The position numbers and the translations under genes are program-made. The notes under the pieces are model-generated. The model worked only from the letters and a program-made list of their open reading frames with translations. It searched no databases and was not told the origin of the DNA. Source: a virus (lineage: Duplodnaviria; Caudoviricetes). Taken from it: a stretch of 27,924 nt of DNA. Below, piece after piece: positions 90 to 10,731 of this stretch. Every line of letters begins with the position of its first letter. Position 1 is the first letter of the stretch. The stretch covers positions 1-27,924 of the IMG/VR virus record IMGVR_UViG_3300020045_010598; one strand, written 5' to 3'.

Positions 90-151
90 GCTCGAATTAG
101 AGCGAGTACGACATAAATATGCAACCGGAATATTATCGGCGTTTGCGTCAC
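1..151. repeat. Inverted repeat, left arm (partner 1007-1157); runs off the window edge
   Basis: Reverse complement of 1-151 aligns ungapped with 1007-1157 (position sum 1158), 11 mismatches by manual count, exact over 1016-1075. Confidence 0.95.
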
Positions 152-171
152 GCATGCCTCCGCGTCATAGT
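143..171 (+). promoter_or_regulatory. Sigma70-type promoter for the tRNA-like RNAs
   Basis: TTGCGT(143-148)-N17-CATAGT(166-171); shares CCTCCGCGTCATA with the promoter at 1640-1668. Confidence 0.6.
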
Positions 172-181
172 TCTCATACGA

Positions 182-237
182 GCGGGGTGGCGGAACGATG
201 GTGACGCGAGCCTACGGCATTAACCGTGGCACCCCGC
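182..237 (+). ncRNA. Structured RNA resembling a tRNA 5' half (acceptor-like stem plus Leu/Ser-type D arm, no T arm)
   Basis: GCGGGGTG(182-189) pairs with CACCCCGC(230-237); TGGCGGAA...GGT.GACGC resembles class II tRNA D arms; internal hairpin 210-229. Confidence 0.4.
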
Positions 238-243
238 GAGACT

Positions 244-350
244 ACAGATGTAGCTCAGGAGGTAGAGCAAGCCCCAGCCGATACCTTTGACGTAAGGGTC
301 GGGAACTGACGAGGTCTTGGCCGGAGGTTCGAACCCTTCCATCTGTTCCA
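244..350 (+). tRNA. tRNA-like gene, 107 nt, with a 31-nt insertion in the anticodon arm; identity undetermined
   Basis: Acceptor ACAGATG/CATCTGT, T8A9, D arm GCTC-AGGAGGTA-GAGC, variable TGGCC, T arm GGAGG-TTCGAAC-CCTTC, discriminator T, encoded CCA (348-350). Removing 275-305 gives exactly 76 nt with loop CT-GAC-GA. Confidence 0.8.
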
Positions 351-352
351 AC

Positions 353-427
353 TTTCTCGTCGGCGAAATTTGTACTGCGTAAATCCAGGTCAAACTATCC
401 CTCAGACACCGCATCTGGTGCAGGGGA
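353..427 (+). repeat. Duplicated promoter+leader, copy 1 (copy 2 at 756-835)
   Basis: TTTCTCGTCGGC..AAT-TTGTAC(370-375)-N17-AACTAT(393-398)..CACCGCATCTGGTGCA..GGGAGA; the same architecture recurs at 756-835. Confidence 0.85.
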
Positions 428-730: not shown

Positions 731-760
731 AAGCCCTCTTCGGAGGGCTTTTCTTTTTCT
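731..760 (+). terminator. Rho-independent terminator
   Basis: AAGCCCTC-TTCG-GAGGGCTT hairpin with cUUCGg tetraloop followed by TTCTTTTT. Confidence 0.9.
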
Positions 761-2944: not shown

Positions 2945-3949
2945 TTAGGCGGCAATGGCCTCGGGCGCGAAAGCAACAGTCTTGTATTTGATCGCCGCCG
3001 TGCTGCCGATCCGCTTGCGAACGTCCACTTCGTTCAGCCCGCTGGCGGCGATGATGTCGGCATCTTCTTTAAAAACGTCGCCGATGATCCAACGGATAAA
3101 ATCACCCGTCGACTGCAGTGTGATCGGAAGACCTTGTTCGCGCAGATAATCCAGTCCCTGATCAAGTCTGGACGGAGTGAGCGCGTTCGCGACGAAGTCA
3201 TTGAGTGTTCCAACACGCTCGACATCGACGGCTGCTAGAACCTTCACATGATGCGTGGAGTGCTCACGTCCTTTGACCTTGAACCGGACTCGCTGACCGT
3301 AAACGTCTGCAGACCAGACGACACCTTCGCCAATACCAGAAACGCCGAAATGCTTCCCGACAGGACATTCGGCTTCGACCGCGTTCGTGATCTCGACGAG
3401 ATCGTTCTGCGAGAACTGCGGGTTTTCGATGTCGATGGTCATTTTCCAGGTCGGAAATTGCGTCACCAGAAACGTTTGTTCTGGAAGATGTCCCCTCAGT
3501 GAATCGATATCGATGAATAGGCCATCGATATGCCAGGCCTCGAACACCACGAACATCAGCGGCAAACCCGTCAACGCTACATTGCTTTGAATAGAACCTC
3601 CGCACCATTCCCCGAAGATGATGATGTGTCCGCCGAGATTTTTGCCGATCGATTTCCATTGGTCTTCGTGTTGCGAAGCCCAGGCGGCAAACCCAGCGTT
3701 GTCATAGTCGGTCGTCAGCACACGATTGCGGGACTGATATTCAACTGTGTCGTCACGGATGACAACGGCAGCGTTTGTACCGTGTAGTTTTACCGATCCC
3801 GAAAATTCGACGGTTGGAAATGTCCATGCTTTGATCTGACCTTCGATCAGTTCACCGTGTTCGTCACGCTTTCCGAGTCTGCTGCGCGTCAGTTTTTGGA
3901 TGTCAGCGATGGCATTGCGGTACTGCTCGATAGAAGGATATTTGATCAT
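2945..3949 (-). CDS. ATP-dependent RNA ligase, Rnl2-like
   Basis: Nucleotidyltransferase motifs I KLHGTN, Ia QSRNR, III FGEW, IIIa FVVFE, IV GEGVV, V FKVK, plus a helical C-terminal domain; GGGAG SD. Confidence 0.88.
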   Translation of the reverse strand: MIKYPSIEQYRNAIADIQKLTRSRLGKRDEHGELIEGQIKAWTFPTVEFSGSVKLHGTNAAVVIRDDTVEYQSRNRVLTTDYDNAGFAAWASQHEDQWKSIGKNLGGHIIIFGEWCGGSIQSNVALTGLPLMFVVFEAWHIDGLFIDIDSLRGHLPEQTFLVTQFPTWKMTIDIENPQFSQNDLVEITNAVEAECPVGKHFGVSGIGEGVVWSADVYGQRVRFKVKGREHSTHHVKVLAAVDVERVGTLNDFVANALTPSRLDQGLDYLREQGLPITLQSTGDFIRWIIGDVFKEDADIIAASGLNEVDVRKRIGSTAAIKYKTVAFAPEAIAA

Positions 3950-8997: not shown

Positions 8998-10635
8998 TTA
9001 CCCGATTGCCCGGTGCCGACCATCCGCCGACATAAGGATCATCGAACGAATCCCGGTCGGGTAGAGCACGACGCTTGCATGTGCCCAGGTTGTCGGCCCG
9101 ATGTTATATCCCTGCGCCAGCTTTGCCAGCACCCCTGCGACAAACGAGCCGTCTGCAATGCGCGGTGAATGGGTATGGCCGCTGGTCACGCGACGGCCGA
9201 AGCGGCGGTACTGCAGAGGGCTGCCACGGCTTCCGCCGATGCCAAGGTCACCGTGTAGACCGTGCTCGACGTCTTGGACAACGTATGATCCTCCGGCGGG
9301 GACAAAGACGATATCAGACGCAAGCCCGAGGTCGCGGAAGCTGTGTTCTGTTGGATTAAAAGCGTCGTCGAGCTTGCGGATTTGTTCATGCCAAACCGCA
9401 TTGTAACGGTGCCAGAGATATGCGTTCTCGGGATCGTAGCGGCCCTCGTCCCCTTTGAGCCACTTCGCGATGGCGCTGTCATGGTTGGACTCGATGACGA
9501 CCGTCGTGCACCAGTCGCGCCGAATGCCGTTCGCGAATGCGACGGCTTCCGATACCTCACGCTCCACCGACACCGTTCCACGGGCCGCCATGCGCGCCAT
9601 AGCGTGAGGGTCTTGGATGTTGTGATGGTTGCGCCAGCGGAAATCCAGCGTGTCTTCTAAAAACGAAAACATCGGCTGGAGCGTGTCGAGCAAGTTCGGG
9701 CAGTCTACGAACTGGAGCCGTGCCCGGTCGTAACCAAACGACGCAAGAGCAATGCGCTGTTCAAGTTGGTCGTGATGAATATCGCCCCAGGTGACAGCCG
9801 CAACGCGATAACCATGCTTGACGATGCCACCTTCGACGAGAATGTTGAGATCCTGAAATGACCCGTCTTCATCAGCAATGAGCTGCCCAAAGAAGACCTC
9901 GCCGTCGGCGTCAATTTCAACCAGTAGCGCGCCAAGCGTGTGATGTTGAATTGCCTTGCGTCCTGCGGCGCGGGGAGCGTACGACGGCATAGTGCAGCAG
10001 CCTGTCGAGATCGCATAGCGCGGCGGCTGTTCTAGCATGCGCGGGATGCTCTCGAGCGCGATCCTGGCATGCGGGACGATGACGTGTTGGCCTCCATTGC
10101 TGGTCTGCCACCCATTGAGAGGATTGGCAGCAGTAGGCAGCACGTTGGCGTCAGCGATGAAGAGAACGTCCGGCGAAAATCTCACGCGGTCGTAGATCAT
10201 CAGGTCTCGGATTTCTGGAGCATACGCACCGCTTCGGACAGCGTGGTCTTCGAATAGACCCTTCTGATAAGTGAACCCAGCGACGACGACATGAGCGCCT
10301 AGATGTTCGGCGTAGGCTTTCAAGTTTGCTAGGAACGGCGCATGGACTTCTGTGTCGTCTTGCGCGGAAGTGAGAATGAAACGATGGACAATGCCGGACT
10401 CAAGATCGGCCTTGATTTCCTCGATCGACGAGATGCGGGCAGGCTTAGGTTTGTCTTTCGGAGTCTTTGTTTCTGTCTGCGATGGCATCGGCGCATTTGA
10501 CTTCAAGAAATCAATCACATTCCGAGCCCTTTTCTCCGACCACCGCATTTCTGCAGCTAGCGGCAGTCTTCCAAGACCCTGAAAACCACGCTTAGAAACT
10601 TCGGCAGCATCAGCCACCACATTGTATTTACTCAT
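8998..10635 (-). CDS. T5 A1-like metallophosphoesterase/nuclease
   Basis: FILTSAQ N-terminal motif, then calcineurin-like motifs GDIH, D..D, SNHD, HG, GHTH and YNxGxTxW tail; likely start ATG 10635 (GGGGAG SD; TTGCAA-N17-AACAGT promoter at 10709-10681). Confidence 0.8.
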   Translation of the reverse strand: MSKYNVVADAAEVSKRGFQGLGRLPLAAEMRWSEKRARNVIDFLKSNAPMPSQTETKTPKDKPKPARISSIEEIKADLESGIVHRFILTSAQDDTEVHAPFLANLKAYAEHLGAHVVVAGFTYQKGLFEDHAVRSGAYAPEIRDLMIYDRVRFSPDVLFIADANVLPTAANPLNGWQTSNGGQHVIVPHARIALESIPRMLEQPPRYAISTGCCTMPSYAPRAAGRKAIQHHTLGALLVEIDADGEVFFGQLIADEDGSFQDLNILVEGGIVKHGYRVAAVTWGDIHHDQLEQRIALASFGYDRARLQFVDCPNLLDTLQPMFSFLEDTLDFRWRNHHNIQDPHAMARMAARGTVSVEREVSEAVAFANGIRRDWCTTVVIESNHDSAIAKWLKGDEGRYDPENAYLWHRYNAVWHEQIRKLDDAFNPTEHSFRDLGLASDIVFVPAGGSYVVQDVEHGLHGDLGIGGSRGSPLQYRRFGRRVTSGHTHSPRIADGSFVAGVLAKLAQGYNIGPTTWAHASVVLYPTGIRSMILMSADGRHRAIG

Positions 10636-10731
10636 TTTTTTGTCTCCCCGGGCATGATTTTTGTTTTGTTGCCCAAGATGACTGTTTTGTTGCCGACGGA
10701 GCGTTGCAAGTTCGCCGGCGATATTTTTCAT

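Follow-up and report, generated by a model that had tools for sequence, protein, structure and literature searches.

The sequence at positions 244–350 of the window (the entire virus record IMGVR_UViG_3300020045_010598, 27,924 nt, estimated to be 53% complete) contains a tRNA body whose anticodon loop is enlarged by 31 nt. With a probability of about 0.5, we favour the reading that it specifies an unspliced, non-decoding tRNA mimic, which may be a decoy aimed at host proteins gripping tRNAs by their elbow and acceptor end. It adds a variant to a known, unexplained kind of gene, the phage tRNA gene with an insert. The features referred to below are as follows.

143–171, plus strand: promoter-like site TTGCGT-N17-CATAGT, recognised by eye and lying under the scan threshold
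182–237, plus strand: tRNA-Cys-derived module with an 8-bp closing stem, a D-arm-like hairpin and one further hairpin, without T loop or CCA
244–274, plus strand: 5′ part of the tRNA body, with the acceptor 5′ strand, D arm and anticodon stem 5′ strand (positions 1–31)
275–312, plus strand: anticodon ‘loop’ of 38 nt (7 + 31), with the core hairpin at 278–302, GCC at 277–279 and GAC at 308–310
313–350, plus strand: 3′ part of the tRNA body, with the anticodon stem 3′ strand, variable loop, T arm, acceptor 3′ strand, U73 and CCA
353–422, plus strand: 70-nt repeat (second copy at 756–825) that ends in a palindrome and precedes two paralogous phrog_1374 small membrane-protein ORFs (435–725 and 843–1004)
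731–750, plus strand: intrinsic-terminator-like hairpin, the first one 3′ of the RNA
2945–3949, minus strand: Rnl2-type RNA ligase gene (PF09414, phrog_548), 2.6 kb from the RNA

The acceptor pairs at 7 of 7 positions (ACAGAUG/CAUCUGU), the D stem is GCUC/GAGC, and the T arm consists of 5 bp with the loop UUCGAAC, followed by U73 and an encoded CCA. The bases of the tertiary core are all there (U8, A14, G15-C48, G18, G19, U54-A58 and C56). A preliminary description of this DNA had located the gene correctly and had the acceptor, D arm, T arm and CCA intact, as they are. Its term ‘perfect body’ suits these elements but overlooks the C29-U41 mismatch, the A1-U72 and A3-U70 pairs and, depending on how the loop is read, A33 (Gly) or G37 (Val). 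At default settings 244–350 escapes ARAGORN and Rfam, scoring under the RF00005 threshold. With the intron option, a check that the preliminary description had proposed, ARAGORN calls a tRNA-Val(GAC) with a 31-nt intron. In 200 simulated windows serving as a chance control, this option made 1 call and the body pattern none; hence, the tRNA body of 244–350 is far beyond chance.

For comparison, 46 distinct host tRNAs were used (42 from G437, 4 from three other genomes). The nearest to the body is tRNA-Gly(GCC), by a small margin in total score (45, against 44 for Thr). In the acceptor with its discriminator base it is clearly the closest of the 46, separated by 6 transitions and 0 transversions and having U73 in common. 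Of the 21 stem pairs, 11 match those of the host tRNA-Gly(GCC); both bases differ in 7 and one base in 2, and 1 pair is broken. This reference is one tRNA of another species, and the changes may predate the insertion. Kept unchanged are U8, A9, A14, G15, G18, G19, A26, G45, G46, C48, U54-A58, U73 and CCA. The body thus most likely derives from a rhizobial tRNA-Gly(GCC).

The determinants of bacterial GlyRS include U73, C2-G71, C35, C36, G1-C72 and G3-C70 (PMC9976931, accessible part). The first four are present in 244–350, and the remaining two have become A1-U72 and A3-U70, both by double changes. The Gly ancestry and the U73 and C2-G71 determinants had been recognised before, but only the matching determinants were cited and not the two that are altered. 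Instead of a 7-nt anticodon loop with U33, the RNA has a loop of 38 nt and, on the Gly reading, A33. An ACA start was also seen in 1 of 8 ARAGORN-called tRNA-Gly genes from the fetched loci, so that A1-U72 alone does not exclude a working tRNA. The 7 double changes, two of which fall in G1-C72 and G3-C70, suggest that the tRNA shape was maintained after Gly identity had lapsed. Also retained is the combination of U73 with G71, which reportedly guides the TacT toxin to tRNA-Gly (PMC9976931, accessible part).

The edges of the 31-nt surplus are undefined, as 8 different deletions are possible. Removal of 275–305, as first described, or of 276–306 yields 76 nt with the loop CU-GAC-GA. This Val loop is weak evidence, however, since single-deletion loops with Y32, U33 and R37 arise in 12% of loop shuffles. 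The same limit applies to the A35, C36, 7-nt loop and U33 of tRNA-Val that deletion of 275–305 produces, and position 37 is G on this reading. The Val determinants A73, G3-C70 and U4-A69 (PMC9976931, accessible part) are absent, the corresponding positions being U73, A3-U70 and G4-C69. When the loop is read from its 5′ side, GCC occupies 34–36, again in agreement with the preliminary description; position 33 is A after every deletion that retains GCC.

The extended hairpin arm drawn in that description (CAG/CUG, CCGA/UCGG, CCUU/AAGG) is not the free-energy minimum, and the whole RNA has a z-score of −0.33. When the acceptor and the D and T arms are fixed, a rival fold pairing 277–287 with 311–321 (−31.3) is better by 3 kcal/mol than the described one, which pairs 278–281 with 299–302 (−28.1), and shuffled middles were as stable as the real one in 297 of 500 trials. 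The described pairs dominate only if pairing of the variable loop is forbidden, as in the tRNA core; the probabilities are then 0.82 for CCGA/UCGG, 0.75–0.79 for CCUU/AAGG and about 0.6 for CAG/CUG. The pairs of the lower anticodon stem reach just 0.06–0.17 even under this constraint. The isolated 25-nt core (278–302) has a z-score of −2.2. As to its origin, the insert bears a weak likeness to the anticodon arm of host tRNA-Gly in a targeted test (138 of 5000 shuffles). A copy of the host Val(GAC) arm and a tandem duplication within the arm were both rejected, with 433 of 2000 and 378 of 1000 shuffles, respectively, being as good.

A second remodelled tRNA, overlooked in the preliminary description, ends 6 nt 5′ of 244–350. 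The fold of this module (182–237) has a z-score of −3.4, which none of 200 shuffles equalled. Among the 46 host tRNAs its best match is Cys(GCA), at a score reached by none of 500 shuffles; in the alignment, 13 nt covering the T loop are missing from the module. The 3′ part of the promoter-like site at 143–171 is an 18-nt near copy of a sequence ahead of ORF 1698; the promoter scan picked another site, ACGACA-17-TATTAT at 108–136. Transcription from 143–171 would start near 178 and include both RNA modules. On the other side of the RNA, the 70-nt repeat is probably the promoter or leader of the two small membrane-protein ORFs; a third copy in G001 marks the syntenic slot there.

The window carries genes for terminase, portal, protease, major capsid, tail tube, tape measure, helicase, methylase, endolysin and RNA ligase. 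Its accessory genes have named relatives in Sinorhizobium, Rhizobium, Pararhizobium and Agrobacterium, and syntenic prophages terminate at host-type tRNA genes; we therefore infer a temperate phage of Rhizobiaceae. The tRNA-like gene sits at the variable accessory end, flanked by two 151-nt inverted repeats. These repeats (1–151 and 1007–1157, 93% complementary) enclose the RNA cassette together with the two small ORFs, and they contain the initial codons of ORF 1069–1620 with the sequence ahead of them. They possibly delimit an invertible segment or, alternatively, represent a paralogous gene running off the contig end. Elsewhere, a repABC-type S-element and ctRNA (L123, L124) adjoin homologues of the window's accessory genes, a hint at phage-plasmid relatives. 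ORF 8998–10731 on the minus strand is labelled ‘DNA transfer protein’ (phrog_1745) and has no Pfam match. Its conserved motifs in an alignment (DxH, NH and GHxH type) resemble those of a calcineurin-like metallophosphoesterase, and its product could be an RNA end-healing partner of the ligase.

No close homologue of 244–350 was found by blastn in phages or plasmids. Exact sequence patterns in IMG/VR returned 3 matches for one pattern, none of them related, and 0 for another; the neighbour proteins had 0 matches in IMG/VR, and the tail-protein search in the phage collection had 0. The strict body pattern had 0 matches in 5 related genomes or records and in 401 family genomes. With a loose pattern, the matches per genome set were 1/32, 0/11, 3/38, 0/11 and 9/196. 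Nine of these were dropped because they were ordinary or tandem tRNAs with a T-loop-like stretch behind them, and one as lying within a Y-RNA-like array. The 160 ligase-neighbourhood loci contained two longer bodies, neither related to 244–350; ligase contigs of 60–80% identity offered no flanks that could be used.

Among 17 related (pro)phage genomes or records, for which some of the scanned stretches may stop short of the accessory end, two more bodies with a long middle were found, in G443 and G001; four other matches were dropped (T stems of 3/5, no D arm). The G443 body has 45 additional nt, intact D and T arms and a 6-bp acceptor, lacks CCA and U73, and lies 150 nt from a host-type tRNA at the record end. 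The G001 body (+30 nt) occupies the same slot ahead of the 70-nt repeat and a phrog_1374 ORF, and is decayed: its T stem pairs at 2 of 5 positions, and it has neither CCA nor U73. Homology of the window insert to either was rejected, with 933 of 2000 (G443) and 923 of 2000 (G001) shuffles being as similar. Ordinary tRNAs in the 17 stretches look host-type by eye, and those beside related prophages were rejected as homologues because they are host-type genes at prophage ends. A further body, from the loose pattern, was present in 1 of 196 family genomes (G069, L441:1221–1328). It has a 31-nt insert and CCA, shares with G443 the T stem, most of the acceptor and C73, and is called Ser(GCU) by ARAGORN and tRNA by Rfam at 55.8 bits. 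By eye, it is flanked by a replication-type helix-turn-helix ORF and an unknown ORF. Since the G443 and G001 bodies lack U73 and CCA, and the body of G443 and G069 is a different one, 244–350 is on sequence grounds one case of a recurrent pattern and not a member of one conserved family.

This recurrence extends to IMG/VR, where 118 loci matched the strict pattern in 27 of 64 parts, which puts the estimated total at about 290. The set was unfiltered and includes any eukaryotic or archaeal viruses and class II tRNAs. The 118 loci represent 111 distinct middles, of which 85 come with a 7/7 acceptor. Among these 85, the T stem pairs 5/5 in 82, CCA is encoded in 13, and one deletion restores a tRNA in 31. 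Many of the bodies (L004–L121) show by eye a CAGCAA-like motif 3′ of the inserted hairpin, and several have GUA and then the insert at 37/38.

Some other tRNA-like sequences were observed in the related genomes. In the close relative G005, L372:2222–2296 (minus strand), upstream of the terminase genes, is another tRNA-like RNA with a closing stem of about 11 bp, a T-loop and one inner hairpin. In G001, about 150 nt 3′ of the body (L335:1265–1420) are hairpin-rich with a D-arm-like part, though folding is not beyond that of shuffles. Directly after the ligase stop in the G437 prophage (L293:1471–1590) are two T-loop-like hairpins, faintly YrlA-like by eye, with no Rfam match.

The enlarged loop raises the question of splicing, by which some endonuclease would excise the 31 nt and the phage Rnl2-type ligase would reseal a 76-nt tRNA-Val(GAC) or tRNA-Gly(GCC). 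We regard this as unlikely. A single deletion does give a 76-nt cloverleaf with U33, but so it does for the 12% of shuffles mentioned above. The Val product would moreover be a chimera of a Gly-type acceptor and U73, in place of A73, with a Val anticodon, and the Gly product would carry A33; both would retain C29-U41. RNase III cuts leave a 2-nt 3′ overhang, and the Val junction, worked by hand, is mismatched with this. In the strict bulge-helix-bulge form the upper helix has a probability of 0.00 and the fold is 5 kcal/mol worse; a cut there would leave 86 nt with a malformed arm, for which reason an Ile(GAU) product by this route was rejected. The PF01974 endonuclease was found in 0 of 4 genomes (G000, G443, G001 and G437; control, 4/4 archaea), although a nuclease could be missing from a contig that is 53% complete. 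Excision would fit with the encoded CCA, with intron-less alleles of Lak phage tRNA introns (PMC6784885, accessible part) and with the ligase gene 2.6 kb away. The distribution of the ligase, however, does not follow that of the tRNA bodies: in G443 (97% complete) a body occurs without PF09414, in the G437 prophage the ligase occurs without such a body, and PF09414 occurs in only 8 of 42 insert-bearing viral records, drawn from 50 of the 85 IMG/VR loci (5 of the 13 near-complete ones). The G001 chromosome has three weak PF09414 matches elsewhere. One deletion restores 31 of the 85 IMG/VR bodies, but neither that of G443 nor that of G001 becomes a canonical tRNA in this way. The protein-spliced mini-intron envisaged in the preliminary description does not stand up well to these results. 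Its other suggestion, a tRNA mimic that would resist or decoy anticodon nucleases, survives in outline as far as the mimicry is concerned, given a shape kept by compensatory changes, lost determinants and relatives with unrelated inserts.

It is possible, though not probable, that the locus is instead a decaying pseudogene pair, a phage tRNA-Cys/tRNA-Gly cluster inactivated by a T-loop deletion and by a 31-nt insertion (perhaps a duplicated piece of the anticodon arm) and awaiting erosion. C29-U41 and A33 resemble unrepaired damage, and the stability of the middle is at shuffle level; both count against the mimic, too, as does the insert having no close homologue in the searches. The upstream module looks like a tRNA-Cys with a 13-nt deletion, the insert has its weak resemblance to the host Gly arm, the slot is a variable accessory one with 15 of 17 relatives lacking the body, and the G001 copy is visibly decaying. 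Yet a single broken pair among 21 contrasts with 7 pairs in which both bases changed, including two GlyRS determinants, and the upstream module is closed by a perfect 8-bp stem. Related elements repeatedly carry independent bodies whose D and T arms are intact, the T stem pairs 5/5 in nearly all IMG/VR cases (82/85), and the duplication origin was not significant when untargeted (433/2000; 378/1000). A carrier, in which the tRNA body serves only processing and stabilisation, RNase P and 3′ trimming release the RNA, and the working part would be the inserted hairpin or the upstream module (e.g. as a protein-binding or antisense RNA), is very unlikely. The body is indeed kept while inserts differ among bodies, and the window and G443 inserts have in common TA(C/G)CTT-6 nt-AAGG, absent from 85 generic bodies; but this motif was picked post hoc and overall insert similarity is at shuffle level. 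For the mimic speak, in addition to the pair changes, the preserved elbow and acceptor geometry, the lost marks of decoding and charging (A33; G1-C72 and G3-C70 replaced; Val A73, G3-C70 and U4-A69 absent), the recurrence of such bodies in G443 and G001 with different inserts and in G069 with one of 31 nt, the Cys-derived neighbour (z = −3.4) and the TacT combination. The absence of U73 from G443 and G001 argues against a decoy based on this base.

According to the mimic model, the promoter-like site at 143–171 would transcribe 244–350 together with the Cys-derived module. RNase P would trim the 5′ end at 244, and 3′ trimming would proceed to the encoded CCA; trimming by RNase P and 3′ nucleases is established for any tRNA shape (PMC9976931, accessible part). 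The RNA would fold to an L-shaped core whose anticodon arm, about twice the usual length, would be unfit for the decoding site, and glycylation would be weak or absent. It may then titrate tRNA-directed toxins or nucleases. This step, the least certain, is doubtful on its own; it is suggested by phage ligases that repair tRNAs cut by defences (PMC7824862, accessible part) and by the retained U73/G71. A wider proposal, which we consider somewhat unlikely, is that temperate rhizobial phages repeatedly capture tRNAs of their hosts and turn them into decoys that resist cleavage, the elbow and acceptor (here U73/G71, the tRNA-Gly toxin signature) being the bait for tRNA-directed toxins and anticodon nucleases, a swappable insert blocking decoding and the Rnl2-type ligase repairing the real tRNAs. 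If true, an RNA-only class of anti-defence would exist across hundreds of phage contigs, annotated as introns or missed.

Phage tRNA genes with odd inserts are invisible to default annotation and yet common, as the estimate of about 290 IMG/VR stretches indicates. Here 244–350 is a tractable case, being small, with prophage kin in named Rhizobiaceae genomes and a clear parent in tRNA-Gly(GCC). If 244–350 proved to be a decoy, it would add an RNA-based means of anti-defence; if a 76-nt product were made, bacteria would have a protein-dependent way of splicing tRNAs. The literature search, outside of which most subscription journals lay, yielded no paper on 244–350 or on decoy tRNAs of phages in which the anticodon arm is lengthened.

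Compared with bacterial tRNA-Gly(GCC) of the Rhizobiaceae type (RF00005), 244–350 shares an identical D stem, an acceptor that differs by transitions only, U73, C2-G71, GCC at 34–36, CCA and the core tertiary bases; it differs by 31 extra nt, A33, A1-U72, A3-U70 and C29-U41. Group I and II self-splicing introns need a catalytic core of more than about 200 nt, and with 31 nt and no Rfam match the insert was rejected as one of these. The bulge-helix-bulge introns of archaeal and eukaryal tRNAs consist of two 3-nt bulges around a 4-bp helix. 244–350 has the 4-bp helix and, on its 3′ strand, one bulge of 3 nt (GAA), but the second bulge is disfavoured, the product would be 86 nt and an EndA-type endonuclease was not found in 4 genomes.

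YrlA Y RNA is permuted (T arm, closed acceptor stem-loop, D arm), has a Ro60-binding motif, GNCGAAN0-1G, adjoins the Ro60 gene and occurs in phages (Chen et al., 2014, PMC4201824, accessible part). With it 244–350 has in common the D arm, the T arm, the elbow contacts and the occurrence in a phage. Membership was nevertheless rejected on account of the normal arm order, the free CCA and the lack of an Rfam match. No Ro60/TROVE gene was found among the window ORFs scanned, the RNA lying 244 nt from the contig end. In G417, repeated permuted tRNA-like units were seen by eye between Ro60/TROVE-like and RtcB-like ORFs (L436:1380–2100), which is probably a YrlA cluster.

In phage tRNA repair systems, Rnl2-type ligases mend tRNAs cut by host defences (PMC7824862, accessible part). 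The window differs from these in that a polynucleotide kinase was not identified in it and ligase and RNA are not distributed together. Like them, the phage encodes an Rnl2-type RNA ligase of the ATP-grasp kind, which fits a setting of tRNA conflict.

The ‘enigmatic’ tRNA introns of Lak megaphages (Devoto et al., 2019, PMC6784885, accessible part) are predicted at 37–41, are mostly 52–141 nt long (one entry in Table S6 has 23 nt), are identical across cohorts and have intron-less alleles. In contrast, 244–350 belongs to a small temperate-type phage and is restorable only at 32/33, and neither a conserved insert nor an intron-less allele was found in the homologue searches. The earlier view of a 31-nt insert as atypical was overstated, considering the published Lak inserts and the frequency of inserts in IMG/VR. 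In both cases an over-long phage tRNA gene carries an insert in the anticodon loop that follows no known splicing route.
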